This document shows positions 9,347-50,335 of a stretch of 64,000 nucleotides of DNA, in pieces. A model generated the notes under the pieces. That model did not search any database. It was not told the DNA's origin and was given only the letters and a program-made list of their open reading frames with translations. Each line of letters opens with the position of its first letter. The first letter of the stretch is position 1. A program made the position numbers and the translations under genes. Source of the DNA: Bacteroidota bacterium (GTDB taxonomy: Bacteria; Bacteroidota; Ignavibacteria; UBA10030; UBA6906); NCBI GenBank assembly GCA_035516035.1, contig DATJAS010000044.1:9026-73025 (forward strand), read 5' to 3'.

Positions 9347-10666
9347 ATGCCCCGATTTTCATTTGTGAACGATCTATTCAATCGCATCGACCCGCGCATC
9401 AAGGCAATCCTGACGCGGCGTCCGGTTGTCACGTACGCGGTGGCCGGTGCGCTTGCGCTCCTGCTCATCCTCTACGTCGCGCTCCCGGCCGGCGCCGCAA
9501 AATCGGATATCACCGTCGTCCCTGCGCGGGGCGTCTTTCTCGTCACCGTGACTGTCAGCGGCGAGCTCCAGGCGAAGAACTCGATCAACGTGATGGGCCC
9601 GCAGGATGCCCAGCGGGCAAACATCTGGCAGATGAAGCTGAGCAACCTCATCCCCGAAGGGACCGTGGTGAAGAAAGGGGAGATCGTCGCCGAACTGGAT
9701 AAGTCTGAGATCACGGGCAAGTTCAAGGAATCGCAGCTTAACGTCCAGAAGCTGGATGCCCAGTTCCTCCAGACGGTGCTCGATAGCGCGCTGACCCTCT
9801 CGCAAGCGAGGGACGATTTGGTAAACCTCGCGTACACCGAGGAAGAAAAGCGCCTTGCCCAGGAGGAATCCGCGTACGAGGCACCCGCGATGAAACGGCA
9901 GGCGGAGATAGAGTTCGAACGTGCGAAGCGCGGACTCGAGCAGGCGAAGCAGAACTACGTCACGAAGCGGAAACAATCGGTGGCCAAGACACAGGCGGCG
10001 GGCGCTGACCTGATGAAGGAGAAACAGCACCTGGAGATGTACCAGAAAGCGATGGAGGAGTTTACGATCCGGGCCCCCGCGGACGGGATGGTGATCTACG
10101 CGCGGGAATGGAACGGGAAAAAGAAAGTGGTGGGAAGCACGATCAACGCCTGGGATCCCACGGTCGCGACGCTCCCCGACCTGCGCGAGATGGAGTCGAT
10201 TACGTACGTGAGCGAGCTTGATATCCAGAAGCTCGCCGTCGGCCAGAAAGTGACGCTCGGCCTCGACGCGGACCCTGCGAAGAAGCTGACGGGTGTCGTG
10301 GTTGCCGTGGCGAACATCGGGGAGCAGAGGCCGAACTCCGATTCCAAGGTCTTTGAAGTGCGGATCAAGGTCAACGAATCTGATACAACGCTGCGGCCGG
10401 CCATGACCACCGCAAACGAGATCCTCGTGGCAAAACAGGACAGCGTCCTGTCGGTCCCCCTGGAGTGCGTCCATACCGAGGGGGGCGTGACGTTCGTGTA
10501 CAGGAGGAGCGGCGGTTCAGTCGTGAAACAGGAAGTGAAAACCGGGTTGATTAACGAGAACGCGACGGTGATCCTCGCGGGTGTGACGGATCGCGACGTC
10601 CTCCTGTTAACAACGCCCCCAGATGCGGGGAAATTCAAGACCGTCCTCCTTGCGTCCCCCCTGTGA
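9347..10666 (+). CDS. HlyD-family efflux periplasmic adaptor (membrane fusion protein)
   Basis: N-terminal TM anchor, a long coiled-coil region and a C-terminal beta-barrel-like region. It overlaps the FtsX permease gene by 4 nt. Confidence 0.75.
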   Translation: MPRFSFVNDLFNRIDPRIKAILTRRPVVTYAVAGALALLLILYVALPAGAAKSDITVVPARGVFLVTVTVSGELQAKNSINVMGPQDAQRANIWQMKLSNLIPEGTVVKKGEIVAELDKSEITGKFKESQLNVQKLDAQFLQTVLDSALTLSQARDDLVNLAYTEEEKRLAQEESAYEAPAMKRQAEIEFERAKRGLEQAKQNYVTKRKQSVAKTQAAGADLMKEKQHLEMYQKAMEEFTIRAPADGMVIYAREWNGKKKVVGSTINAWDPTVATLPDLREMESITYVSELDIQKLAVGQKVTLGLDADPAKKLTGVVVAVANIGEQRPNSDSKVFEVRIKVNESDTTLRPAMTTANEILVAKQDSVLSVPLECVHTEGGVTFVYRRSGGSVVKQEVKTGLINENATVILAGVTDRDVLLLTTPPDAGKFKTVLLASPL

Positions 10667-12057
10667 ACCTGCCGGGAAACAGATTCGTTGCGCGCTGGCT
10701 CTCGACGGGCACGGCCCTCCAGCTTGCGCAGAGCGCTCGCATCGCGGTCGAGGCGATCACGCACAACCGGCTTCGCGCCGTCCTGACCTCTCTCGGGATC
10801 GTCTTCGGCGTGGGGTCGGTGATCTCCATGCTGGCCGTCGGGACCGGGGCCAAGCAGGAGATCCTCGAACAGATGAAGCTCCTCGGGGCTAACAACATCA
10901 TCATCACCCCGGTCGTCGAGCAGGAGGAGGGGAAGGTCGAGGAGGAGCCAGCGACGGGCAAGAAAGAGAAAAAACGGTTCAGCCCCGGCCTGACGCTTGA
11001 CGACGGCGAAGGGATATTGAGCACGCTCCCCGGGATTGAATTCGTGAGCCCGGAAGTGGTCATGGAGACCATGATCGTGCGCGAGGGGCTCAAGCGCACT
11101 GGGAAGCTCGTTGGCGTCGATTCGATATACTTTGTCACAACGGATTTTGCCCTCGAGCGGGGGCAGCTCTTCTCGCGGGCCCAGATGAGCCAGGCGCTCC
11201 CGGTTGCGGTAATCGGCCACGGGATCAAGACGAGGTTCTTCTCCACTCAGGATCCCATCGGCGGCAGGATCAAATGCGGGAGCCTCTGGCTCACGGTGGT
11301 CGGTGTGTTGCAGGAACGGCGGCTGAGCAAGGACAACATACAGCATCTCGGCCTGCGCGATTTCAACTTCGACGTGTACACGCCCGTGAAGACGCTTCTT
11401 CTCCGCTACAAGAACCGGACGCTGGTCACGCGGCTCGACGTGCAGAAGGCCGCGCGGGAAACCGGCGGGGACGACAATAACGGCGAGCAGAAGAAGGCGG
11501 TCAATTACCACCAGCTCGACCGGCTGGTCGTCCGCGTGGCGAATACGGACCAGATGGCGGGCCTGGCGGAGGTCATCAGCAGGATGCTCGAGCGCCGGCA
11601 CAATAACGTGGTCGATTTCCAGGTCATGGTCCCCGAGCAGCTCCTCCGGCAGGCGCAGCGGACGCGTGAGATATTCAATATTGTCCTCGGCGCGATCGCC
11701 TCGATCTCGCTGATCGTGGGGGGTATCGGCATCATGAATATCATGCTCGCCTCGGTGATGGAGCGGACAAAGGAGATCGGCATTCGCCGGGCTGCGGGAG
11801 CGACGAAGCGCGCAATCGTGCTCCAGTTCCTGAGCGAGGCCATGATCATCAGCTTCACGGGGGGAATCATGGGCATTATTCTCGGCTTCGCTATCAGCTC
11901 CGCGATTGAGACGTTCGCAGGCGTCCAGACGATCGTGACGTTCCTCTCCGTGCTTGTCGCGTTTGTGATATCTATATCGGTGGGGATCCTCTTCGGCATC
12001 CTCCCCGCGCGGCGCGCGGCCGAACAGGATCCGGTTGCGTGCCTGCGGTACGAATAA
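10663..12057 (+). CDS. ABC transporter permease, FtsX/MacB-like (no ATPase domain)
   Basis: N-terminal TM, a large periplasmic MacB-like domain, and C-terminal FtsX helices carrying the GIGIMNIMLASVMERTKEIGIRRAAGATK motif. Confidence 0.8.
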   Translation: MNLPGNRFVARWLSTGTALQLAQSARIAVEAITHNRLRAVLTSLGIVFGVGSVISMLAVGTGAKQEILEQMKLLGANNIIITPVVEQEEGKVEEEPATGKKEKKRFSPGLTLDDGEGILSTLPGIEFVSPEVVMETMIVREGLKRTGKLVGVDSIYFVTTDFALERGQLFSRAQMSQALPVAVIGHGIKTRFFSTQDPIGGRIKCGSLWLTVVGVLQERRLSKDNIQHLGLRDFNFDVYTPVKTLLLRYKNRTLVTRLDVQKAARETGGDDNNGEQKKAVNYHQLDRLVVRVANTDQMAGLAEVISRMLERRHNNVVDFQVMVPEQLLRQAQRTREIFNIVLGAIASISLIVGGIGIMNIMLASVMERTKEIGIRRAAGATKRAIVLQFLSEAMIISFTGGIMGIILGFAISSAIETFAGVQTIVTFLSVLVAFVISISVGILFGILPARRAAEQDPVACLRYE

Positions 12058-12074
12058 ACTACCGGACAGAACGA

Positions 12075-13544
12075 ATGAAGAACTCGGCCCTCCTGCTTAT
12101 GCTCCTGGCGACCGGCACGGCGCGCCTCCCCGCCCAGGTCGACACGACGTGGTTGACGCTCCACGACTGCGTGCGCATGGCGCGCGAGCAGGGCCCCCTC
12201 GGCGCCATGGCCCGGAGCTCTCTGGAGGAGAAAGAGTCAACCTACCGCTCGTTCATGCGCGGGCTTCTCCCACAGCTTTCACTCCAGGGGGATGCTCCCG
12301 GCTACACCCATTCCATCAACCCCGTCGTCCTCCCCGACGGGACGACGATGTTCATCCCCCAGAGCGAAGCATCTTCCGCGGCCAGCCTCGCGCTCACGCA
12401 GAAGATCCCGTTCACCGGGGGCCTCCTCTCCGTCCTCTCCGGGCTGAACAGGATCGACATAATGGAGTCGCGGACGCACTACTATAACGCGAAGCCCCTC
12501 TCCCTGTCGCTCACGCAGCCAATTTTCCAGCTCAACACGATGCGCTGGGACGAGGAGGCGCAGGATCTCCACTACCGTATGGCCCCGCGCGAGCTGGCCG
12601 AAGCGCTCGAAGACTGCGCGGCTGATGTGACGAACAAGTTTTTCGACCTTCTCGTGTCGTCGATGAACGCCTCAAACGCCTCGCTCAACGTGGCAATCAA
12701 CGATACCCTCTACAGGATCTCGCGCGGCAGGTTTAACGTCGGCAAGATCGCGGAGAATGACCTGCTCCAGAGCGAACTTGCCTACCTTAGCGCGAAGACC
12801 GACTTCGAGAACGCTGAGGTAGGGCTCTCCCGGTCGCGAGAAACGCTCAGGGCGGCGCTCGGCATGTCGCCGGTGGTCACGTTTGCACTCGTGCCTCCCC
12901 GGGAGATCACCGGCGGGCGCGTCGAACCTGACTCGGCGCTCGCGGCGGCGAGGCGCTACCGGAGCGACATGCTCAATTACGAACTTCAGCGCCTGACGGC
13001 AGAGCGGGGGGTGATCCAGGCGAAATCGGACAACGCGTTTGTCGCGACACTGAACGCCAGCATAGGGTACAACCAGACTGCCCCGGTGCTCCCCGATGCC
13101 TACCGGCAGCTCCTTGACCAGCAGGCGGTGAGCTTGGGGTTCACGTTCCCGATATTCCGGTGGGGAGCGGGGAGCGCTGCGGTGGATGCGGCGCTTGCCG
13201 AGCAGAAGCGCACGGAAGTCTCGGTGGCGCAGCAACGGTTCGACGCGGAGCAGGAGGTCCTCTACGAAGCGGCCAGGCTGAACCTCCTGCGAGAGCAGGT
13301 GGCTGTCGCGGCTAAGTCCGACACGATTGCACAGCGGCGGTTCGACGTGGCGAAGGATCGCTACGTCATCGGCAAGATCGATATACCGATCCTCTTTATC
13401 GCGCAGAGCGAGAAAGACGCGGCGCGGCGGGCGAATATCCAGACGCTCTGGAATTACTGGGCGAGTTACTTCCGGCTCCGGCGGCTCACGCTCTTCGATT
13501 TCGAGACCGGGGAGCCGCTTGTGTCGCTCGAAGGGGGGCGGTAG
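12075..13544 (+). CDS. TolC-family outer membrane efflux protein
   Basis: Signal peptide MKNSALLLMLLATGTARLPAQ. It has the two-repeat OEP architecture. Start moved to the Met at 12075, which removes the overlap with the upstream gene. Confidence 0.75.
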   Translation: MKNSALLLMLLATGTARLPAQVDTTWLTLHDCVRMAREQGPLGAMARSSLEEKESTYRSFMRGLLPQLSLQGDAPGYTHSINPVVLPDGTTMFIPQSEASSAASLALTQKIPFTGGLLSVLSGLNRIDIMESRTHYYNAKPLSLSLTQPIFQLNTMRWDEEAQDLHYRMAPRELAEALEDCAADVTNKFFDLLVSSMNASNASLNVAINDTLYRISRGRFNVGKIAENDLLQSELAYLSAKTDFENAEVGLSRSRETLRAALGMSPVVTFALVPPREITGGRVEPDSALAAARRYRSDMLNYELQRLTAERGVIQAKSDNAFVATLNASIGYNQTAPVLPDAYRQLLDQQAVSLGFTFPIFRWGAGSAAVDAALAEQKRTEVSVAQQRFDAEQEVLYEAARLNLLREQVAVAAKSDTIAQRRFDVAKDRYVIGKIDIPILFIAQSEKDAARRANIQTLWNYWASYFRLRRLTLFDFETGEPLVSLEGGR

Positions 13545-14134
13545 GCTCGCTGCGTGGAGGCGGCGGAGAGGAGTTCCTCCCTCTCCCGCTGAGTTGCATT
13601 TCGCCACTGGCCGGGAGCCAGGCCTTGCAGCGTCAGGCTTCCGATCGAAGTCCGCACAAGCCTGAGCGTCGGATGGCCGACCGCCGCCGTCATCTTCCTC
13701 ACCTGCCTGTTCTTCCCCTCCGTGAGGCTGATCTCAAGGCAGGCCGTGGGTACGCTCTTCCTGAACCTGATAGGAACCGGCCGCGGGGGAAGGTCGGGCT
13801 CGGCTGGAAGCAGACGCACGCTCGCCGGGAGCGTTTTTCGCCCCTCAATTTTGACCCCCTCCCGCAGCCTTCCCAGGGCCCCCTCGTTGGGGATCCGTTC
13901 CACCTGTGCAACGTACGTCCTCCGGTGGCCGAACCGCGGGTCCGTCACCATGTGTGTGATGCGGTTATCGTCCGTCAGGAGGAGTAGCCCCTCGCTCTCC
14001 GCGTCCAGGCGCCCGGCAGGGTACACGGACTTCGGGAATGGGCCGAAGTCAGCGAGCGTCTGCCACTTTCCCTCCCGCGTGAACTGGGAGAGCACGCCGA
14101 AAGGCTTGTAGAAGAGTATCAGGTGCGCTGCCAT
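13466..14134 (-). CDS. rluE: 23S rRNA pseudouridine synthase, RluE/RsuA family
   Basis: Catalytic motif YPAGRLDAESEGLLLLT. Length is ~220 aa. The basic C-terminal tail overlaps the convergent TolC 3' end. Confidence 0.75.
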   Translation of the reverse strand: MAAHLILFYKPFGVLSQFTREGKWQTLADFGPFPKSVYPAGRLDAESEGLLLLTDDNRITHMVTDPRFGHRRTYVAQVERIPNEGALGRLREGVKIEGRKTLPASVRLLPAEPDLPPRPVPIRFRKSVPTACLEISLTEGKNRQVRKMTAAVGHPTLRLVRTSIGSLTLQGLAPGQWRNATQREREELLSAASTQRAYRPPSSDTSGSPVSKSKSVSRRSRK

Positions 14135-14247
14135 GCCGCCAATGTATGCAGAAGGAGCGCGAAATGCGATTGCGGGAGCGGGCGCTTTCTTGATTCTCGG
14201 CTCGCTTCTCTCTACTTTAGTATGTCACTGATAACACGCGCAACAAC

Positions 14248-15312
14248 ATGCCGACGACCCGGAGGACATTCCTGCAACGAGCCGGGGCGGCTGCCGCGGC
14301 GGCCGTCGCGGGTGCACCGCTGATCCCGTCCCTTCTCAAGTCCGCGCCGGCGCCATCGCCCGGCCCGATCGTCATCGCCAGCGGGAACGGCCTCGAGGCG
14401 GTGAAAAAGGCGATGCAGGTGATCCAGCAGGGGAACGACGCGCTGGATGCCGTCATCGCCGGCGTGAACATCAACGAGAACGATCCGAACGACACCAGCG
14501 TAGGGTACGGCGGCCTGCCCAACGAGGACGGCGTGGTCGAGCTGGATTCCGCCGTGATGCACGGCCCGAACCACATGGCCGGTGCGGTGGCGTCGCTCCG
14601 CAATATCAAGAACCCCTCGAAGGTCGCCCGCCTGGTCATGGAGCGCACGGACCACGTGCTGCTCGTGGGAGAGGGGGCGCTCCGGTTCGCGAAGGCGCAC
14701 GGCTTCGTGGAGGAGAACCTCCTCACCGAGAAGGCTCGGGAAGAGTGGCTGAAGTGGAAGGAGAACATGTCGAAGGAGGACGCCTGGCTGCCCGTGCATG
14801 CCGACACGACCCGCGCCGACCTTATCGGCGAGGCGTTCGCCCCGTACATGAAATACACGGGGACGATCCACTGCAGCGCCATCGACAGGAACGGCAACAT
14901 CTCCTGCGTCACCACCACGAGCGGGCTCGCGTGGAAGATCGCGGGGAGGGTCGGCGATTCGCCGATCGTGGGGGCGGGTCTTTACTGCGACAACGAAGTG
15001 GGTGCCGCGGGCTCGACCGGGCGCGGCGAGGCGAACCTGATCAGCTGCAACAGCGTGATGATCGTTGAATGGATGCGGGCGGGGAAGTCGCCCGAGGAAG
15101 CGTGCCTGTTGGCGTGCAAGCGCGTGGTGGAGAACAACAAGCAGCGGCGGCTGCAGGACGATCAGGGCCGGCCGACGTTTAATGTCTCGTTCTACGCGCT
15201 CAGCAGGAAGGGGGAGCGCGCCTGCGCGTCCGTTTGGGAGCCGAAGGAGTACGCGGTCCACGACGGCAGGGAGGCACGGCTTATCCCGGGTGCGTACCTG
15301 TACAGGAAATGA
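14248..15312 (+). CDS. N4-(beta-N-acetylglucosaminyl)-L-asparaginase / isoaspartyl peptidase (Ntn hydrolase, asparaginase-2 family)
   Basis: Tat-like signal RRTFLQRAGAAAAAAVAGAP. Autoprocessing and active-site region GTIHCSAIDRNGNISCVTTTSGLAWKIAGRVGDSPIVGAGLYCDNEVGAAGSTGRGE. Confidence 0.8.
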   Translation: MPTTRRTFLQRAGAAAAAAVAGAPLIPSLLKSAPAPSPGPIVIASGNGLEAVKKAMQVIQQGNDALDAVIAGVNINENDPNDTSVGYGGLPNEDGVVELDSAVMHGPNHMAGAVASLRNIKNPSKVARLVMERTDHVLLVGEGALRFAKAHGFVEENLLTEKAREEWLKWKENMSKEDAWLPVHADTTRADLIGEAFAPYMKYTGTIHCSAIDRNGNISCVTTTSGLAWKIAGRVGDSPIVGAGLYCDNEVGAAGSTGRGEANLISCNSVMIVEWMRAGKSPEEACLLACKRVVENNKQRRLQDDQGRPTFNVSFYALSRKGERACASVWEPKEYAVHDGREARLIPGAYLYRK

Positions 15313-15334: not shown

Positions 15335-17287
15335 ATGAACGTTTCGCTACGACGATTTCAGATATTCCTTCTCGTCTTGATCCCCCTGGCGGCTCGTGCG
15401 CAGCTTTTCCGGATAGATACGCTCGCGCGCGGCCCCGCCATACAGCTCCCGTCCGCCTTCGCGTTCGTCCCTGGCGCAGACGATAAGTTCTTCTTCGCTG
15501 AGCGAAGCACCGGACGCGTGCGCCTTTTTGACGGCGCCCTCCATCCCGGCGCTTTTGTCACCGTCCCGGTGGAAGACGAGGGGGAGCAGGGACTCCTCGG
15601 CCTTGCTGTCCATCCCGATTACCCCGATTCCCCCTTTGTCTACGTCTACTACGTCCGCGCGATCGACAGGGCGGGGATCCTCGAGCGCTACCGCGACCAG
15701 AACGGCGAAGGGGTGTCGCCCGACCTCCTCCTCTTTATCGCGCGCAGGGACGAGGCGACGCAGAACAACGGCGGCGTTCTCCGCTTCGGCCCGGACGGCA
15801 AGCTCTACCTCGCCGTGGGGGACCACGGCGCGCGGCCTTCCAATGCGCAGGACACGCTCGGGGGGAGAAACCTCCGGGGAAAAATCCTCAGGCTGAACCC
15901 GGACGGCACTGTGCCTGACGATAACCCCTACCCGCGGAAATATTTCTGGTCGCTCGGACACCGTGATCCAACGGGACTCGGGTTCGATCCCCTGAACGGC
16001 AGGATGTACGTCACCGAGGGAGGTGTGCTTGCCAACGAGGTGCTTGCGGTCCCGCGGGGGGCGAATTTCGGCTGGCCCGGACGTCGCCCGACTTCGCCCG
16101 ATTCGGGACGCTCCCCGGCGGTTCTCTACAGCACCGTCAGGTTGGACCAGCCCGACCTGAGAGGTGTCGCGGTGTACCGGGGAGACCTTTTTCCCCGGCT
16201 CAACGGGAAGATCCTTTTTGTCGGGAACGCCGACCCCACGCTCTGGGTCGGGACGTTCCTCCCCGGGAGGGATTCGCTTGCGGTCGAGCCGATATACAAA
16301 TCAAATACCGGGTTCTCCGACGTGCAGGTCGGCCCCGACGGCTGCATCTATCTGGCGAACGGTCCTTACCGGGGAAGCCGGATCGTGCGGCTCTTCCCGG
16401 TCGCCCCGTCGTTCGTCTCGGCCCCCCCTTCCGCCGCGGTGCTCGGCGAGCCGTACCTCTACACGCCAATATTCAACGGCACGCCCCCCGTGCTCGAGGT
16501 CGTGAGCGGACCGGAAGGGATGACCGTCGACACGACGGACTGGAGCGTACACTGGGTTCCGTCGAAGCCGGAGGCGCTCGCAAGGAAGGCCCAAGTGACG
16601 CTCCGGGCACGCAACGGTGCGGGAACTGTCGATCAGCAGTTCACCGTGTCCATCCAGAATGTGAACGAGCCTCCCTCGGCGTTCGCGCTCACCTCCCCCC
16701 CGGACAGAAGCGAAGAGCGGTTCCTCGGGGAGGACCCGTACGTCATGTTCAGCTGGTCCGCGGCGCACGACCCCGACCTGGACACCGTGCGCTACGCCAT
16801 CCAGATCGATACCGTCGCGACGTTTGCCAGCCCGTTCCTCCTGACAATCGACGCCGGGACGTCCGATTCAGCCCGCGTGGCGCTTCCCCAGGCGAGCGCC
16901 GAGTACTACTGGCGTGTGGCCGCGACCGACGGGAAGTTGACGACGCTTGCCGCGCCCCGCGTGTCGCGCATCAGCGTAATCTTTTCGAAATTCCTCGGCC
17001 GGGAGCGTGCCCGGCACGTCGAATCGGTGATCGAGCCGGTATTCCCGCCGCCGGCCCCGCTGAACCAGCAGCCGGACATCAGGTACACTGTCCCCCGCAC
17101 CGGGTACGTGCGTCTCTCCGTGTTCAATCTCCTCGGGCAGGAAGTGGCGCGTCTCTACGACGGCACGCAGCAAGCGGGGACGTACGACGTGGCGATCAGC
17201 GGAGCCAACCTCCCGAACGGCATCTACTTCTACCGCCTCATCGCCCCCGGCTTCGCCGAGACAAAGAAGATCGTGGTGTCCCGGTGA
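15335..17287 (+). CDS. PQQ-dependent sugar (glucose/sorbosone) dehydrogenase with type IX secretion C-terminal sorting domain
   Basis: Signal peptide. SGDH beta-propeller motifs LAVHPDY, GGVLRFGPDGKLYLAVGDHG and LGHRDPTGLGFDP. The C-terminus NGIYFYRLIAPGFAETKKIVVSR looks like a T9SS sorting domain. Confidence 0.8.
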   Translation: MNVSLRRFQIFLLVLIPLAARAQLFRIDTLARGPAIQLPSAFAFVPGADDKFFFAERSTGRVRLFDGALHPGAFVTVPVEDEGEQGLLGLAVHPDYPDSPFVYVYYVRAIDRAGILERYRDQNGEGVSPDLLLFIARRDEATQNNGGVLRFGPDGKLYLAVGDHGARPSNAQDTLGGRNLRGKILRLNPDGTVPDDNPYPRKYFWSLGHRDPTGLGFDPLNGRMYVTEGGVLANEVLAVPRGANFGWPGRRPTSPDSGRSPAVLYSTVRLDQPDLRGVAVYRGDLFPRLNGKILFVGNADPTLWVGTFLPGRDSLAVEPIYKSNTGFSDVQVGPDGCIYLANGPYRGSRIVRLFPVAPSFVSAPPSAAVLGEPYLYTPIFNGTPPVLEVVSGPEGMTVDTTDWSVHWVPSKPEALARKAQVTLRARNGAGTVDQQFTVSIQNVNEPPSAFALTSPPDRSEERFLGEDPYVMFSWSAAHDPDLDTVRYAIQIDTVATFASPFLLTIDAGTSDSARVALPQASAEYYWRVAATDGKLTTLAAPRVSRISVIFSKFLGRERARHVESVIEPVFPPPAPLNQQPDIRYTVPRTGYVRLSVFNLLGQEVARLYDGTQQAGTYDVAISGANLPNGIYFYRLIAPGFAETKKIVVSR

Positions 17288-17290
17288 GCC

Positions 17291-18523
17291 TCACTTGCTC
17301 CGCCGGATCACCACGATGGTCTTGTCGTCCGAGTACTCGAGCAGCTTGTTGTGCTTCTGGACGTCTTCCACGATGAGCTGACAGATCTCCTTCGGCGTGT
17401 GCGAGCGGAGGTCCTTCACCTTGGCCACCAGCCGGTCCTCGCCGTACATTTCCCCCTTCTCGTTTGAGGCCTCGACGATCCCGTCTGTGTAGAGGATCAT
17501 GATGTCGCCGCGGCGCATGATCGTGAACTCGGTCCTGTATTTCTCGGCGGGGAATGGCCCGATGATCTGGCCGGTTGCCCCCAGCAGCTCCGTCTGCCCC
17601 GTAGCGGCATGGAGGAGTATCGGGAAGCAGTGCCCGGCGTTCACGTACGAGACGAGCCCGTTGTCCGAATCGGTGAACTCGGCATACACCATCGAGATGA
17701 AGTGTTCGGGCGTGAACGTCTTGTTGACGAGGCGGTTCAGCCGGCCGATCAGCGTGCTCATCTTCGTCTGGAACTCGACCCCCATGCGGAGCGCGCCGGA
17801 GACGTACAGGGCCTGCGCGGCGGCGGAGAGCCCCTTGCTTGCCGCGTCGCCGATCACCACGCCGAGGCGGTCCCTGTCGTCGGAGGCCTGGAGGTAGTCG
17901 AAGAAATCCCCCCCGACGATCCGCTCGGAGAGCGAGATGCCGTAGATGTCGTAGAATGCGAACTTCAGCTCGTGCTCGGGAAGGATGCTCCGCTGGATCT
18001 CGCGTGCCTGGTCCAGGTCGCGCTCGAGCTGTTTGGCCTTGCTCTCGCTGCGCCTGTTGCGCAGGGCGGATGTGAGCGCGCTCCCCAGGATGTTCAGCGT
18101 GTAGAGCATGTCCTCTTTCAGGTAGTCGGCGTTGATCGCCAGGACGTACTGGTAGAGGTTGTATGACCGCCAGGGGATCTTCTCGCCGACCCCGGTGGCC
18201 GAGTAGTGCGAAATCCCCTTCTGCCGGAGATAGCGGTTGGTCTCGTTGGCGACGATCGTCCCCTTCTTGTCGAGCTGGCCGAACATCGGATAATCGACCA
18301 CGCGGATCCGGAAGTTCTTCTGGATCTCCTCGATCTCGCCGTACTGGCGGAGGAGCCGGTAGTTCCCCGAATTCGATTCGAGCTTCCAGATGCGGCCACC
18401 CCTGATGCGCGTAGCCTCGTTGACGATGACGCTCTCGAGGATGTGACCGAGGAGCTGTTCTTCCGTGCGGAACTTCTCGTCGCTCAGTATCCTGATCGTC
18501 CTGTACAGCTTGTGCTGGTCCAT
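17291..18523 (-). CDS. PP2C-family (SpoIIE/RsbU-like) serine phosphatase with N-terminal GAF-like sensor
   Basis: PP2C motifs GGDFFDY, GDAASKG and ILYTDGIVEA. The N-terminal ~170 aa are a GAF-like sensor. Confidence 0.75.
   Translation of the reverse strand: MDQHKLYRTIRILSDEKFRTEEQLLGHILESVIVNEATRIRGGRIWKLESNSGNYRLLRQYGEIEEIQKNFRIRVVDYPMFGQLDKKGTIVANETNRYLRQKGISHYSATGVGEKIPWRSYNLYQYVLAINADYLKEDMLYTLNILGSALTSALRNRRSESKAKQLERDLDQAREIQRSILPEHELKFAFYDIYGISLSERIVGGDFFDYLQASDDRDRLGVVIGDAASKGLSAAAQALYVSGALRMGVEFQTKMSTLIGRLNRLVNKTFTPEHFISMVYAEFTDSDNGLVSYVNAGHCFPILLHAATGQTELLGATGQIIGPFPAEKYRTEFTIMRRGDIMILYTDGIVEASNEKGEMYGEDRLVAKVKDLRSHTPKEICQLIVEDVQKHNKLLEYSDDKTIVVIRRSK

Positions 18524-21868: not shown

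Positions 21869-21872
<4 letters not shown>
21366..21872 (-). CDS. DinB/YfiT-like (DinB_2) metal-dependent hydrolase family protein
   Basis: HGSIHGTLTHMVGAEKMW and YHRAQVVTLMRQMG His-containing helices. Length is 168 aa. Confidence 0.65.
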
Positions 21873-24604
<2,732 letters not shown>

Positions 24605-24740
24605 GCAGGAATTAACCCAAATCCGGCAGGAAAATCAACGAACCGGAACTCGGGGAAAGAACACCCGGGGGGCGGGGGGGGTCCGCACACCCCGGGGTCC
24701 AGCGCCGGGGATCCGAGGGACCTCCGGCATTTCCTATGGG

Positions 24741-26081
24741 TCAGTGGAAATTCATGATGTGGTAACTTTCCCACCACTGTGAGATCGAGTAGGTCTTCTT
24801 GATGAAGCCAGGATAGAACGGAGGTCTGACAGAGGGATCGGCAAGTCGAACGTCGTACTTGTAACGCTTGAGGAAACCGCTCTGGAGCGTGGCGCTCCCG
24901 TTGAACGTGCCGACGGGTCCGCGTGAGTTCTGCACGATCGACCCGAGGATGTTGAGGTCTCCGTTGATGGGGCGCGTTGAATAGTTCTGCGCGGTGAACG
25001 AGCCTGTGCGTGCAAAAACGCTCCCCTGGATTGTCCTGCCGGTCGCGCCCGGGATGTCATCGGCCACGATGACGTTGTTGTTGGCGACCAGTCCCAGCAT
25101 GTCCGAGCTCGCGCCGTTGCGCGGATCGTGCTGGTAGAAAATGTCCTGCTGGATCACGATGTTGTTCGTCGATGCCGTGGGCGTGCTGTAGGAGGCGATC
25201 GTGAGCCTGCCGTCGAGCGTCCCCTGCACGTTCACGACGCCCGTTCCCATGATCACGCCGTTAAAATTCGGATCGCCGAGCCCGACCGTGTCGATGATCG
25301 GGCCGAGCTGCGTCTGGCGCACGTAGGCAACGCCGTCTCCCTCGGCGGGCCCCCCGGGGTCGAGCGTGACCCAGATATCCGTGGTGTATTTCTTCCCGTT
25401 CGGTGAGGCGGCGGCGGCGGCCAGTCCGCTCATGTCGCTCGGGAACTGGATCTGGGCGACCCCGGTTTCCGGTGCCGGGGGATTCTGGAAAATCGCCTTG
25501 TTGGTATACGTTGTGCCGCCGATCACCTGGGACTTGCCCAGCGGCGGGATGAGCCCCTTCGACGTGGTCACCTTCTGGAGGAACACCGGGCTTCCGCTCA
25601 TCGTCAGGTTATCGTTGGAATGGACCCTCCCCCAGATAGAATCTCCGGTAATCCAGAACACGCCGTTCTCCAGGTTGGTCATCCAGGCGAAAAGCGAGAA
25701 GCTGTTGTCGGAGCTGGAAGCCACCGTCACGTCGACCGTGTCGCCGTACGCGTTGCCGTCGACAAACGACGAGGAAACGCTCCTGAGGAGCTTCCCTCCG
25801 GGGACCGGGGAAACCGTCGCGGTAAACGAGCCGTCGAACGGGCTTCCCGAAAACGACTGCGTCATAGTGACGGGAGCTGAGGATCCCCAGCTTGTGTCGC
25901 GGTAGAGCCGGGAGAGTGCGGCGTTTGCCCCGGCGAGCGCCAGGTTGTGCGAGGCCGTCATCGCCGCGTATGCCGACATGTTGGTCACGGAACGCGTCGC
26001 CGCGCCGCCGAGGTTGAGAATCGCGTACCCCATCAACGAGCTGAATCCCAGGATCAGGATTAACGCCGCCCTTCCCCCCAT
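24741..26081 (-). CDS. membrane-anchored secreted protein, PilX_N-like N-terminus (putative minor pilin-associated protein)
   Basis: N-terminus GRAALILILGFSSLMGYAILNLGGAATRS...ALAGANAALSRL resembles the pilus-assembly PilX N-terminal domain pattern. The large C-terminal domain is beta-rich and Gly/Thr/Asn-rich. Confidence 0.4.
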   Translation of the reverse strand: MGGRAALILILGFSSLMGYAILNLGGAATRSVTNMSAYAAMTASHNLALAGANAALSRLYRDTSWGSSAPVTMTQSFSGSPFDGSFTATVSPVPGGKLLRSVSSSFVDGNAYGDTVDVTVASSSDNSFSLFAWMTNLENGVFWITGDSIWGRVHSNDNLTMSGSPVFLQKVTTSKGLIPPLGKSQVIGGTTYTNKAIFQNPPAPETGVAQIQFPSDMSGLAAAAASPNGKKYTTDIWVTLDPGGPAEGDGVAYVRQTQLGPIIDTVGLGDPNFNGVIMGTGVVNVQGTLDGRLTIASYSTPTASTNNIVIQQDIFYQHDPRNGASSDMLGLVANNNVIVADDIPGATGRTIQGSVFARTGSFTAQNYSTRPINGDLNILGSIVQNSRGPVGTFNGSATLQSGFLKRYKYDVRLADPSVRPPFYPGFIKKTYSISQWWESYHIMNFH

Positions 26082-26108
26082 GGTCTCCCCTTCCGAGTAT
26101 GCTTCCGA

Positions 26109-26723
26109 TCAGCGACGGAAATTTTGCGACGCCAGGCGCGTCTGTTGCCAGTACGAGGTGGAATAGAGGGCGTTCCGCTGCCCGGCGGCCACCATCCCCT
26201 GCGGGCGATAGAGCGCGTACGGGTTCTGGACTTCGAGCGAGATCTCCACTTCCTTGATGCGCCCGAGGTCCCCGGCGGAGACCGGAGTGACGAGCGTGTC
26301 GTCCGTGGCGGTGATGTAGGTGAGATGGAAATAGGTGACGACCGCGGGACTGGTCGGCGCCTCGCTGTTGAGTTGACGGTGGATATACCGGTCCATTTCG
26401 TTCTGCGTGGCCGCAAGCTCCGAGGTCGGGCCGAGCGTGTACGAGATCGTGTCCATCGTACCGTCGCGGTTCACGTCGCACAGGAATGCAATTGAGCTGT
26501 CGCCGGCGGCGAGAATCGTCTGCTTGCCGGGAGAGAGCCCGTAGCCCATGTTCTGGAATTCTCCTTCGATGTATTGCACCTGCGTGATCAGCAGCTCCTG
26601 CACGAACGCATCCCCCTGGTAGGTCGACGAGTCCTCGGCGACCAGGTTCTGCGCGTCGATAACGTTCATGAGGAGCATCCCCCCCATCAAGATCGAGCAG
26701 AGCACGTCGAGTATTGCCGACAC
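26109..26723 (-). CDS. membrane-anchored hypothetical protein (pilin-like N-terminal helix)
   Basis: The N-terminal hydrophobic helix ILDVLCSILMGGMLLMNVI is followed by a soluble domain. It is co-operonic with two similar genes. Confidence 0.4.
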   Translation of the reverse strand: MSAILDVLCSILMGGMLLMNVIDAQNLVAEDSSTYQGDAFVQELLITQVQYIEGEFQNMGYGLSPGKQTILAAGDSSIAFLCDVNRDGTMDTISYTLGPTSELAATQNEMDRYIHRQLNSEAPTSPAVVTYFHLTYITATDDTLVTPVSAGDLGRIKEVEISLEVQNPYALYRPQGMVAAGQRNALYSTSYWQQTRLASQNFRR

Positions 26724-26735
26724 CTGTCCCCCCTC

Positions 26736-27257
26736 CTAGAAGAAGTGGAAATAGCCCATGACGATCGATGTCTTCAGCGTGTCGATGATCTCGTCCGATC
26801 CGGGTGGCGGGAATGTCCTCCAGGTTCTCATGTCCAGGCGCTTGAGATACGTCCTGTACGAGACGCTCTTGCTGAGGTCGTTGGTGTCGACGTACGAGAC
26901 CGCGAACGTGGTCATGTAGCGGCGATCCGATCCCCCCGCCGTCTTCTCATCGGAGTAGCCGTTCAGGTCGTCGAAGTCGTTGAATGTATCCATCGTTGTT
27001 TCACCGGGTTCGGGGCCGGGTGGATACGTCAGTGCGAGGGGACTTGTGAGCGCGACGTCGGAAGTGTCAGTGACCTGGTCGAACGCCAGACCGTTGGCAA
27101 ACTCGATGTAAGAAGTGGCGATCGTCGTTGCCAGTATGCCATCCTGCCCGCCGGAGATGTCCTGCCCCGTGCGGTCGAGCGAAGAATATACGCCCTTGAG
27201 TATTGTCGTCAGGAGTATGAACGCGGCTATCGAGAGTAGCGTCTGCCCGGTCGTCAT
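26736..27257 (-). CDS. membrane-anchored hypothetical protein, prepilin-like N-terminus (MTTG/QTLLSIAAFILL)
   Basis: GGAGGGGGG RBS. Start MTTGQTLLSIAAFILLTTIL resembles a class III signal (G|xTLL), though +5 is Ser not Glu. It is the first gene of a three-gene operon. Confidence 0.4.
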   Translation of the reverse strand: MTTGQTLLSIAAFILLTTILKGVYSSLDRTGQDISGGQDGILATTIATSYIEFANGLAFDQVTDTSDVALTSPLALTYPPGPEPGETTMDTFNDFDDLNGYSDEKTAGGSDRRYMTTFAVSYVDTNDLSKSVSYRTYLKRLDMRTWRTFPPPGSDEIIDTLKTSIVMGYFHFF

Positions 27258-27384
27258 CAGCGGGTCCCCCCTCCGGAAATCTCCTCAACGACACGAATTA
27301 GCAAAATAATACGAAATTAATTTGTCATATTTCGGTGATGTACCTCACAAAAAATCTGATAATTTGGCATATGTGTTCTTCGGT

Positions 27385-29217
27385 TCATTCCAAAATCCTC
27401 ATAATTCCCTCAATTCGGCCCATTGGGGCTGAAAGCTGGACTCCAGCCACATTTCCCTTAATATGGTGGTACGTTTCCCGCGCGATTTTGACCCCTTCTG
27501 CAAACCCCTCTTCTTTCGTCGTCGTTTTCCTCATTCTCTCCATAATCTCCGGGGGCACAGATGCGCCCGGAACCTCGTTGTTCATGAACTCCGCGTTTCT
27601 GTATGAGACCAGCGGCCATATGCCGCAGATCAGCGGCACATTCACCCCTTCGATCCTCTTCATGAACTCCTCGAGTATGCGAATGTCGAACACGGGCTGC
27701 GTGATTACGTACTCGGCCCCCGCTTCGATCTTCCATTGGAGCCGCCTCAGCTCTTCGTCGAGATTGATCGCCCCCGGGTTCACGCCGACGCCGATCGAGA
27801 ATCCGGTCGGATCGCCGATAGGGTTCCCGGCCAGGTCGAGCCCGTGGTTGAGGCGGTTGATGACGTTTGTCAAACCGATCGCGTCCACGTCGAACACGGC
27901 GGTGGCGCTCGGGTAATTCCCCAGCTTCGGCGGGTCACCCGTGATGGCCAGGATATTCCTCAGGCCCAGCGCCCACGCCCCAAGGAGATCGGATTGCATC
28001 CCGATCACGTTCCGGTCCCGGCAGGCAATGTGGAGCACGGTTTCGATGCCCACGTCCCTCTGGATGATCGACGCCATCGCCAGCGCGGACATCCGCGCGG
28101 AGGCCCGCGGTCCGTCGGGAATATTGATGGCATCGATGCCGAACTGGTGGAGCCGCCGCGCCTTTTCCACCTCGCGCGCGGGTGAGACCCCCTTCGGGGA
28201 GACCAGCTCTGTCAGGACAACAAACTCTCCCCTGACGAGCTTCGTTGCGAAGCGGGACTTCTCCGTCTTCTGGAAGACGCGTACCGCCTCAGGCGCCTTG
28301 ACCTCGAAACTGACCCCTTTCATGTCCATCCGCTTCACGGGCTGGAGAGCCCGAACGGCCCGCCGGATCGCGCGGATATGGTCGGGATTCGTTCCGCAGC
28401 ACCCCCCGACGATCGTCGCGCCCGTCTGGATGAACCTCTTGGCATACTCCGCCATGTACTCCGGGGACGTCATGTAGATGTTCCGCCCGCCGATGTTCTG
28501 GGGGAGCCCCGCGTTCGGCTGCACCGACATCGGGAGCGCGGTCAGCGTCTTCAGCGTCTCGAGCGCGTCAAGCATGGCGCGGGGGCCGACCGAGCAATTG
28601 AGACCGATCGTGTCGATCCCGGAGCTCCCCACCCCCTTGACGAAACTCTCCAGCGTGGCGCCGCTGAGGAGGTTTCCGTCATCGTTAATCGTGACCTGGG
28701 CCATGAGCGGGATATCGGGGTTCAGTTCCCGCACGGCCTGAATCGCCTGCGCCAGCTCCGCCACGAGCGAGAACGTCTCCAGTATCACAATGTCCACACC
28801 TCCCTCCAGGAGGCCTGCGGCCTGCTCCCGGAATGCCTCGCGCGCCTCGCCGTAGGAGAGCTTGCCGAGGGGCTCGATCTGGACACCGAGGGGACCCATC
28901 GACCCGGCCACGAGCACCTGGTCTCCGGCTGCAGCACGGGCGAGCTGCGCCCCTTTCACGTTGATATCCCTGACGCGTGGCTCCAGCCCGTGGGGGGCGA
29001 GCTTGAACCGGTTTGCGCCGAACGTGTTCGTCTCGATGACGTCCGCCCCCGCCCCGATGTAATCGCGGTGCACCTCCGAGACGATGTCAGGGTTCGTGAG
29101 GTTTAGCTCGTCGAAACAGGTGTTGATGTAGATCCCCTTCTGGTAGAGGTACGTGCCTACCCCTCCGTCGAAGACGAGGACTTCGTTACTCTGGAGCCGT
29201 TCCCTGAAGCCTTTCAT
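27385..29217 (-). CDS. bifunctional homocysteine S-methyltransferase / 5,10-methylenetetrahydrofolate reductase
   Basis: N-terminal Hcy-binding domain with Zn-site motifs GLNCSVGP and GGCCGTNPDHI. The C-terminal MTHFR domain carries FVVLTELVSPKG and AITGDPP. Confidence 0.85.
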   Translation of the reverse strand: MKGFRERLQSNEVLVFDGGVGTYLYQKGIYINTCFDELNLTNPDIVSEVHRDYIGAGADVIETNTFGANRFKLAPHGLEPRVRDINVKGAQLARAAAGDQVLVAGSMGPLGVQIEPLGKLSYGEAREAFREQAAGLLEGGVDIVILETFSLVAELAQAIQAVRELNPDIPLMAQVTINDDGNLLSGATLESFVKGVGSSGIDTIGLNCSVGPRAMLDALETLKTLTALPMSVQPNAGLPQNIGGRNIYMTSPEYMAEYAKRFIQTGATIVGGCCGTNPDHIRAIRRAVRALQPVKRMDMKGVSFEVKAPEAVRVFQKTEKSRFATKLVRGEFVVLTELVSPKGVSPAREVEKARRLHQFGIDAINIPDGPRASARMSALAMASIIQRDVGIETVLHIACRDRNVIGMQSDLLGAWALGLRNILAITGDPPKLGNYPSATAVFDVDAIGLTNVINRLNHGLDLAGNPIGDPTGFSIGVGVNPGAINLDEELRRLQWKIEAGAEYVITQPVFDIRILEEFMKRIEGVNVPLICGIWPLVSYRNAEFMNNEVPGASVPPEIMERMRKTTTKEEGFAEGVKIARETYHHIKGNVAGVQLSAPMGRIEGIMRILE

Positions 29218-49036: not shown

Positions 49037-50335
49037 ATGGCTGCCCAGGACGCACCAGGCGCTGGTGGACTTTCCCCGCAGGAGGAAAACCGCCGTCTCA
49101 AGAGGGCCGTCGAGGAGCTGTCGATCCTGAACGACCTCGCCCGCGCCATCGGGGCATCGGTGAACCTGCAGGATATCATGCGGACGATCATCCACCGGTC
49201 GATCCGCGCCATCCGGGCGGAACAGGGGGTGATCACGCTGGTCGACCACCGCGCGCAGGACGTGATGAAGACGCTCGTGCGCACGATGGCCAGCTCCTCC
49301 CAGTCGCCGCAGTACCACTTCAGCCAGAGCCTCCTCGGCTGGATGCACCTGAACAAGAAGCCGCTGATGCTCAACGACCCCCGCACGGACGAGCGGTTCC
49401 GCGGCGTCCAGTGGGACGAGTCGATCCGCTCGCTCCTGTGCGTGCCGATGATGGTCAAATCGACGCTCATCGGCGTCCTGACGGTGTACAACAAGCGTGA
49501 GGAGGGCGCGTTCACGGACGAGGACCAGCGACTCCTGGCGATCATCGCCGGCCAGTCTGCGCAGATCGTCGAGAACGCGCGCCTCTACGAGGAAGAGCAG
49601 GCGCTTCAGCGGATGAAGGAGGAGGTCCGGCTCGCCGCGACCATACAGATGGATCTCCTCCCGAAGGCCCCTCCCGACGTCCCCGGGTACGATATCGCGG
49701 GGGTGAGCATCCCTGCCCAGCTCGTCGGCGGCGATGCGTTCGATTTCATTCCGATCGACGCCACGCACATCGCCGTCACGCTTGCGGACGTGTCGGGGAA
49801 AGGACTTCCAGCGTCGCTCCTGATGGCCAACGTCCAGGCGACGCTCCGCGGGCAGACTCTCGGCGGGCCCGGTGCTTCAGTCTGCGTGCAGCGCGCGAAC
49901 AAGCTCCTCTTCCAGAGCACGAGCCCCGACAAGTTTGTTACGCTCTTCTACAGCGTGCTTGACGCCGGGGCCCACACGCTGACCTACTGTAATGCGGGGC
50001 ACGACCACCCGTTCCACTTTTCCGGCCCCGGGTCGCCGAAGAGGCTGGAGACAGGGGGCCTCGTGGTCAGCATCGTGGAGGATTTTCCCTACCAGGAGGA
50101 CACCGTGTCGCTCGCCCCGGGCGACGTGGTCGTTGTCTACTCCGACGGGATCACGGAGGCGGTGGATCCCCTGGCCGCGCAGTTCGGGGACGTGAACATC
50201 GAGTCCGTCGTCGTCGCCAGCCGCACGCTCGGCGCCGCCGGCATCATCGACGCCATCGTGGGTGCGGTGCGGCACCACGCCGACACCGCCGCGCAGGCGG
50301 ACGACATGACCATCGTGGTTATCAAGCGGCTGTAA
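49037..50335 (+). CDS. GAF-domain PP2C (RsbU/SpoIIE-like) phosphatase
   Basis: N-terminal GAF domain and C-terminal PP2C with GGDAFDF and VYSDGITEA. Confidence 0.8.
   Translation: MAAQDAPGAGGLSPQEENRRLKRAVEELSILNDLARAIGASVNLQDIMRTIIHRSIRAIRAEQGVITLVDHRAQDVMKTLVRTMASSSQSPQYHFSQSLLGWMHLNKKPLMLNDPRTDERFRGVQWDESIRSLLCVPMMVKSTLIGVLTVYNKREEGAFTDEDQRLLAIIAGQSAQIVENARLYEEEQALQRMKEEVRLAATIQMDLLPKAPPDVPGYDIAGVSIPAQLVGGDAFDFIPIDATHIAVTLADVSGKGLPASLLMANVQATLRGQTLGGPGASVCVQRANKLLFQSTSPDKFVTLFYSVLDAGAHTLTYCNAGHDHPFHFSGPGSPKRLETGGLVVSIVEDFPYQEDTVSLAPGDVVVVYSDGITEAVDPLAAQFGDVNIESVVVASRTLGAAGIIDAIVGAVRHHADTAAQADDMTIVVIKRL

Follow-up and report, generated by a model that had tools for sequence, protein, structure and literature searches.

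The g1-g2-g3 locus

The stretch of DNA analysed here (64,000 nucleotides of contig DATJAS010000044.1 from a Bacteroidota bacterium of the class Ignavibacteria, hereafter the window) possesses three co-directional genes on its minus strand, g1, g2 and g3 (Table 1), which probably encode a set of minor-pilin-like proteins that serve as tip or priming module in a type IVa pilus-like machine of Ignavibacteriota type. A preliminary description of the window had reported three co-directional genes of 173, 204 and 446 aa, each with an N-terminal hydrophobic helix. Its coordinates and lengths agree exactly with ours, and AlphaFold2 (AF2) places the helices at residues 2-57 of g2 and 2-61 of g3. The genes are separated by 12 nt (g1/g2) and 27 nt (g2/g3), and a ribosome-binding site of GGAGG type precedes each of them. 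Genes g1 and g2 share a reading frame (window 26724-26738) with TAG and four codons between them (TAG GAG GGG GGA CAG GTG), and the g1 stop is overlapped by the ribosome-binding site of g2.

Homologs number in the hundreds for each gene (318 for g1, 380+ for g3) and derive from uncultured Bacteroidota/Ignavibacteriota metagenome-assembled genomes (MAGs). Relatives with an amino-acid identity of 66-79% show 3-4 times as many differences at third codon positions as at second ones. Given the number of homologs and this codon-position pattern, the trio consists of real genes; it is under strong purifying selection.

Table 1. Features of the g1-g2-g3 locus and its flanks, in window coordinates
Feature	Position	Strand	Description
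g1	26736-27257	(-)	173 aa, ATG start; small minor-pilin-like protein, PilV/GspI-position
g2	26109-26723	(-)	204 aa, GTG start; minor-pilin-like protein, PilW/GspJ-position
g3	24741-26081	(-)	446 aa, ATG start; PilX/GspK/ComZ-like large subunit
g3 residues 1-121	25719-26081	(-)	predicted pilin-like module: alpha-1 helix 2-61 and four-stranded antiparallel sheet 71-121
g3 residues ~133-408	24858-25685	(-)	predicted beta-helix/solenoid (AF2 model)
g3 residues 125-174	25560-25709	(-)	DUF4900 match, Pfam E=0.004
MetH-like gene	27385-29217	(-)	fused S-methyltransferase/MTHFR; upstream flank of trio
mutS	21869-24604	(-)	downstream flank of trio
Intergenic region upstream of g1	27258-27384	(-)	AT-rich, 127 nt; presumed operon promoter region
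Hairpin in g3/mutS interval	24662-24674	(-)	weak, terminator-like; consensus scan, tentative

N-termini of the trio

Each trio protein begins with a hydrophobic segment. In g1 (MTTGQTLLSIAAFILLTTIL) residues M1, G4, Q5 and T6 are nearly invariant in alignment A1, and across all loci the start reads M-x-x-[G/S/Y/N/M]-[Q/H]-T, with position 5 always Q or H and position 4 variable. The g2 N-terminus (MSAILDVLCSILMGG) is leaderless, has no Gly ahead of the helix and follows M-x-x-x-x-D with Asp6 and Gly14 invariant (alignment A2). The g3 N-terminus (MGGRAALILILGF) starts with M-x-G-[K/R], of which G3 and K/R4 are conserved. The distance from Met1 is invariant in all three and in the candidate major pilin families treated below. 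Longer leaders are ruled out for g1-g3, because an in-frame stop lies just upstream of the first start codon of each open reading frame (ORF); in g2 this is a TAG four codons upstream.

In class III signal peptides (N_methyl motif, PF07963) a brief leader with positive charge ends in Gly(-1) and is removed by prepilin peptidase. Another pilin hallmark is Glu5 of the mature protein; the capping subunits PilX and GspK do not have it, and g3 resembles them in possessing no acidic residue at position 5. No N_methyl match was obtained for g1-g3 at E<=10, nor for their homologs at the pilus locus L036 and the pilin candidates at E<=1. The first ~20 residues are among the best-conserved parts of g1 and g2, with position 5 or 6 always polar; judged from the alignments, such N-termini are typical of pilin alpha-1N and unlike Sec signal peptides.

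It is very improbable that the trio consists of common Sec-dependent proteins, secreted or held by a signal anchor, whose function is unrelated and whose likeness to pilins is coincidental. Hydrophobic N-termini could in principle be signal anchors, and no family besides a DUF is matched, but the N-termini are highly conserved, of fixed length and devoid of a positively charged n-region, AF2 predicts a continuous N-terminal helix of 55-60 residues, and the trio occurs repeatedly at a fixed position in type IV pilus (T4P) clusters, in three arrangements.

Families and predicted folds

Pfam and NCBIfam searches with g1-g3 yield nothing except a sub-threshold match of g3 to DUF4900 (PF16241; 17.9 bits, gathering score 29.4), a family to which no function is assigned. 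At family level, 22 of 40 diverse g3 relatives match DUF4900 (best E 8.7e-11), and many g3 homologs carry a precomputed PF16241 label. The g3 family profile is matched by 3302 clusters at 50% identity. One g2 homolog bears the JGI name PulJ. The PilX_N-like start previously ascribed to g3 was not recovered: PilX_N (PF14341) matches neither g3 at E<=10 nor any of 40 diverse family members at E<=0.01, and the likeness is limited to the pattern G-x-A-L-I...A-x-A-G. A Tad/Flp reading, for which comparison with TadE/TadG models had been proposed, was rejected; TadE, Tad_N and TadG give no Pfam match at E<=10, and the machinery linked to the trio in relatives is of the PilB/PilC/PilT/PilQ type, not Tad.

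The AF2 model of g3 (predicted local distance difference test score, pLDDT, 84) possesses an N-terminal helix, antiparallel strands, a beta-helix and a conserved terminal strand at residues 432-438 (secondary structure by DSSP). The C-terminal 300 residues of g3, in which the preliminary description had noted a large Gly/Thr/Asn-rich beta domain, are predicted as beta-helix. The g2 model (pLDDT 76) has its helix followed by two groups of beta strands. Type IV pilins and pseudopilins have an N-terminal alpha-helix of about 53 residues that packs on an antiparallel beta-sheet. As modelled, the helix-then-sheet order of g2 and g3 is that of type IV pilins, and the predicted order of elements in g3 fits that of the solenoid-bearing tip pilins ComZ and cyanobacterial PilX.

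Searches against PDB sequences with phmmer (g3) and with profiles (alignments A1, A2, A3 and A4) gave nothing meaningful; matches to Mfa2, TRM6 and Utp4 (E>0.1) were dismissed as chance. The diverse alignment A4 was too variable to serve as seed for a genome scan. Comparisons of alignments A1, A2, A3N and A5 by hmmsearch and hhalign with E. coli GspG-K, with the canonical pilins of locus L048 and with each other reach probabilities of <=2% and are not significant; therefore sequence homology of the trio to pilins is not demonstrated. Membership in the N_methyl pilin families cannot be shown for the trio either, given its differences in leader, Gly(-1) and Glu5. With the models of g3 and g2 as queries, Foldseek yields no PDB match at E<0.1. 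The best match of g3 is 5uyt, an ice-binding beta-solenoid (E=0.42, not significant), and a chain of XcpGHIJK appears at E=4.1.

The trio in relatives

A scan of GTDB species genomes with a g3 alignment retrieved 44 loci, each from an Ignavibacteriota/Bacteroidota MAG; a further 80 loci from metagenomes (L050-L129) were added later. For each homolog, ±10 kb were queried with hidden Markov models (HMMs) of g1, g2 and g3, with E. coli Gsp proteins and with Ignavibacteriales Pil proteins. The trio is conserved as a unit in ~50 Ignavibacteriota/Bacteroidota MAG loci, in the same order and intact wherever the flank suffices.

About ten loci encode the trio together with PilB/PilC machinery, inside or beside a type IVa pilus-like cluster. 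In L029, L030, L032, L036, L042, L043 and partly L039 the order is pilin(s)-T2SSF-T2SSE-g1-g2-g3-PilT-538aa-294aa-Secretin, with the trio between pilB and pilT (the latter a second T2SSE). Pfam and NCBIfam identify in L036 a PilB-like ATPase (TIGR02538, 422 bits), a PilC/GspF-like platform, a PilT/PilU-family ATPase (TIGR01420, 328 bits, cut-off 319) and a PilQ-type secretin. In L113 and L105 the trio lies directly upstream of, or divergent from, pilin-pilC-pilB, and L040 has the order g3-pilB-pilin-pilin-pilC. Machinery clusters without the trio, in which pilT follows pilB directly, are found in L086, L088, L097, L118, L121, L126, L127 and L129. The three independent linked arrangements argue for a functional link of the trio to the pilus machine. 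Together with the clusters that do without it, they characterise the trio as a detachable module of this machine.

Two further proteins of L036, of 538 aa (12607-14223) and 294 aa (14238-15122, bitopic), occupy the position of PilMNOP and have no pilus-family match beyond a weak PilM-like one. This weak match, of the 538-aa protein, is to the PilM-like family of Akkermansia Amuc_1101, and the protein looks like a PilM-PilN fusion. An 813-aa protein (L036 1703-4144, minus strand) with an N-terminal PMT_2/GT-C glycosyltransferase domain and C-terminal tetratricopeptide repeats adjoins the pilin genes and is reminiscent of pilin O-glycosyltransferases.

Some 20 loci (GC 0.55-0.63) possess the arrangement metH-trio-mutS, as does the window, and none of them has pilus machinery within 10 kb. 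The window is the detached state of the trio module; no PilB/PilC machinery is encoded along with the trio in its 64 kb. This synteny bears on the quite unlikely alternative that in this clade the operon was co-opted for a function independent of pili. Its products would then form a complex anchored in the membrane, at the surface or in the periplasm, with the beta-solenoid as adhesin or ice-binding-like domain, and the fixed adjacency to mutS would reflect loss of the pilus machinery. The window and the metH-trio-mutS loci fit such co-option, as do the two or three trios present in several genomes and a Kapabacteria MAG reported without T4P genes (PMC7509429). Yet the same phylum has machinery clusters without trio, as expected of a split system, the N-terminal helix with its polar residue is kept under strong selection, and the high-GC relatives L039 and L042 retain the trio inside the cluster.

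Copy number of the trio varies among relatives. L020 (4990-13083) contains three tandem copies, very unequal in divergence (A3 HMM bit scores 744, 530 and 176), L012 (3238-9495) contains two, and L042 (699-3036) has a degraded second trio on the opposite strand. Several MAGs possess two trio loci on different contigs. These tandem and multiple trios recall the multiple minor-pilin sets described in cyanobacteria. In L004/L024 (11729-13105) a block with a group II intron-type reverse transcriptase (RVT_1 and GIIM), a TetR regulator and a MacB/FtsX ABC transporter is inserted between trio and mutS and breaks their otherwise conserved adjacency in one relative.

A bridge to canonical pili

Locus L048 (Bin_338, an unclassified bacterium MAG of another lineage) contains a canonical type IVa pilus (T4aP) cluster. 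Its gene order is two N_methyl major-type pilins (RPGYTLLE and RRGFTLIE), PilT, two N_methyl minor pilins, a DUF4900 protein and PilM-PilN-PilO-PilP-PilQ. The minor pilins measure 192 and 233 aa, and the 570-aa DUF4900 protein, directly after them, matches the g3 (A3) HMM at E=4e-22. This small-medium-large set with the DUF4900 protein last has the same layout as g1-g2-g3, by which g3 corresponds in position to PilX/GspK, and g1 and g2 to PilV/PilW (GspI/GspJ). The minor-pilin or pilus-tip set (PilV/W/X-like) envisaged in the preliminary description is supported by the trio's presence in pilus clusters of relatives, by the position of the g3 homolog in L048 and by the predicted layout of g2 and g3.

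Gene context proves association with the machine only, and the trio could accordingly comprise non-filament accessory parts of the same pilus machine, such as an inner-membrane or periplasmic assembly or gating complex, instead of fibre subunits. The missing canonical leader, Gly-1 and Glu5 and the lack of any sequence or Foldseek match to pilins would suit such parts. We regard this as unlikely: the PilMNOP position is already held by the PilM-like 538-aa and the 294-aa bitopic proteins, AF2 predicts the alpha-1 helix and sheet of a pilin-type layout, and the g3 homolog of L048 occupies a minor-pilin slot behind two N_methyl pilins.

Candidate major pilin and prepilin peptidase

Candidate major pilins of 125-138 aa, starting with MGQQQLLLIILGVIIVGIAIAVGI, are present in 1-4 tandem copies just upstream of pilC (L036 4495-4899 and 5020-5403; also L030, L032, L040, L042, L043 and L050-L129). 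In alignment A5 they read M-G-[Q/T/S]-Q-Q-[L/I/M]-[hydrophobic]-[L/F/M]..., and in-frame stops just upstream of their ORFs leave no room for an N-terminal extension. They match no N_methyl or pilin model. The family has 457 confirmed relatives in one metagenome scan, and many copies occur as orphans, the 10 kb around them being free of machinery genes.

Six-frame ORFs of the 129 loci (~1 Mb) contain no A24-peptidase-like or GspO-like ORF and no protein with a G-x-G-D-x-K motif (phmmer and motif search), and canonical G-F-T-L-I-E prepilins are restricted to L048 among these loci. The gene pilD is often unlinked from the pilus cluster, so that the absence of an A24 ORF is not decisive. In the literature, the Melioribacter genome paper reports pilB/C/T/Q and no pilA or pilD, and one Ignavibacteriales MAG is reported with a canonical e-pilin-like PilA (PMC7399161). 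Nothing specific was found in the literature on leaderless pilins or on an Ignavibacteria-specific pilus.

Proposed function

Support for the PilV/W/X-like reading of the trio, as minor-pilin-like proteins with a tip or priming function, comes chiefly from gene context. Several points weigh against this reading. The N-termini fail as class III signals, as there is no charged leader and Gly(-1) is not conserved (g1) or absent (g2); the class III-like signal that the preliminary description had read in g1 is not canonical. Glu5 is lacking, in g1 as elsewhere, with Q/H at position 5 from Met1 (g1), invariant Asp6 (g2) or no equivalent (g3). Pfam, NCBIfam, PDB profiles, hmmsearch and hhalign reveal no significant sequence similarity of the trio to any pilin. 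The AF2 models cover two of the three proteins, g2 and g3. Finally, as the preliminary description had noted for the ATPase, secretin and prepilin peptidase, neither these nor a platform gene is present within the 64-kb window (Pfam scans of large ORFs, L001 annotation, phmmer of all ORFs against E. coli Gsp and Ignavibacteriales Pil proteins); the pilus machinery is presumably encoded elsewhere in the same genome.

According to the mechanism we propose, g1, g2 and g3 would enter the inner membrane via their extreme N-terminal hydrophobic helices and assemble on the PilC platform into a trimer like PilV-PilW-PilX or GspI-J-K. This trimer would prime the polymerisation, driven by PilB, of a small major pilin (in relatives, the 'MGQQQLLLIILG...' family) and be carried to the filament tip; both complex formation and tip location are assumptions of the model. 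There the g3 beta-solenoid may form a cap or plug on the fibre and would probably mediate adhesion, in keeping with what has been suggested for ComZ and cyanobacterial PilX. In the window's clade the module would have split from the machinery genes and become fixed between metH and mutS. The presence of PilT points to a retractile T4aP-like pilus rather than a type II secretion system (T2SS).

It is conceivable, if rather doubtful, that Ignavibacteriota build a type IVa-like pilus from 'leaderless' pilins, with no need of a prepilin peptidase for assembly. The candidate major pilin and the trio all start with 0-4 uncharged residues before the core helix, and Gln/His5 or Asp6 would stand in for Glu5. 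These N-termini and the missing A24 ORFs are compatible with a peptidase-independent pilin system, which is far from proven. To our knowledge, cleavage of a class III signal peptide by prepilin peptidase is taken to define the type IV filament superfamily and to occur throughout it. If the leaderless reading is true, a lineage with only leaderless, non-N_methyl pilin-like genes would test this universality, and Ignavibacteria genome papers that list pilB/C/T/Q but 'no pilA/pilD' would be explained.

All three trio proteins are currently 'hypothetical' in annotation pipelines. The reading as a tip module would provide DUF4900 (~3300 clusters at 50% identity) with a functional context, as beta-solenoid tip subunit of divergent pili, and would imply that a location between metH and mutS, far from the machinery, can be stable for a minor-pilin module.

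Flanks and other genes of the window

The 127-nt region upstream of g1 contains no sigma-70 consensus match and no exact Bacteroidetes-type TAnnTTTG. Promoter and terminator predictions by consensus scan do not exceed shuffled expectation at this locus. The window possesses two genes for SpoIIE/PP2C-type phosphatases (17291-18523 and 49037-50335), one with a GAF domain; the gene at 17291-18523, near the trio, is syntenic in relatives L001 and L003. A 650-aa GSDH-domain protein (15335-17287) has a weak match to Por_Secre_tail, the C-terminal sorting domain of type IX secretion, which fits a Bacteroidota/Ignavibacteriota origin with a type IX secretion system. Two large ORFs (53893-56823, 976 aa, with high GC at third codon positions, and 10096-11601, 501 aa) have no Pfam match at E<=0.001.

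Comparison with known systems

The 'T2SS' of the Bacteroidetes member Cytophaga hutchinsonii (CHU_3191-3202) groups with T4aP (PMC5553014; PMC6668835). Like the Ignavibacteriota cluster, it is a divergent type IV filament system of Bacteroidota and the Fibrobacterota-Chlorobiota-Bacteroidota (FCB) group; its minor pseudopilins are hard to recognise, and it has PilMNOP-like parts. In the Cytophaga cluster a GspG major pseudopilin can be recognised, a Peptidase_A24 gene is present and no PilT has been described; the Ignavibacteriota cluster, in contrast, has PilT and, in 129 loci, neither an N_methyl pilin nor an A24 gene. Identity of the two systems was rejected, as the Cytophaga system has GspG and A24.

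Like the trio, PilV-PilW-PilX of T4aP and GspI-GspJ-GspK of the T2SS pseudopilus tip are encoded by three adjacent genes of rising size, each product with an N-terminal hydrophobic helix and the largest without an acidic residue at position 5, and the trio of relatives lies within or next to pilB/pilC/pilT/pilQ. The start of g3 (MGGRAALILILG) resembles that of E. coli GspK (RGVALLIVLMLL). Unlike these sets, the trio has no N_methyl or PilX_N match and no charged leader, Gly(-1) is either variable or missing, Q/H5 (g1) or D6 (g2) takes the place of Glu5, a fourth FimU/GspH-like gene is lacking, and in the window's clade the genes are unlinked from the machinery.

A parallel in predicted architecture is provided by ComZ of Thermus thermophilus (with PilA2), whose pilin fold is interrupted by a large beta-solenoid (PMC6561018), and by cyanobacterial PilX, whose pilin fold carries one (bioRxiv 10.64898/2026.02.12.705559); both are proposed as tip cap or receptor. 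The modelled g3 shares with them an alpha-1 helix, a sheet, a bulky beta-helix and a final conserved strand, with smaller minor pilins alongside. In the order of its elements, the g3 model fits a ComZ-type insertion of the solenoid before the last strand. The g3 solenoid also resembles ice-binding proteins (weak Foldseek match 5uyt). Unlike ComZ, g3 shows no detectable sequence similarity to PDB ComZ chains, and ComZ is not among its top Foldseek matches; unlike both ComZ and cyanobacterial PilX, it belongs to a family that matches DUF4900 and has just M-x-G-K/R ahead of the helix. Functionally the trio would correspond to the known core minor pilin set with a solenoid-bearing PilX, and its fixed, ultra-short N-termini are new.

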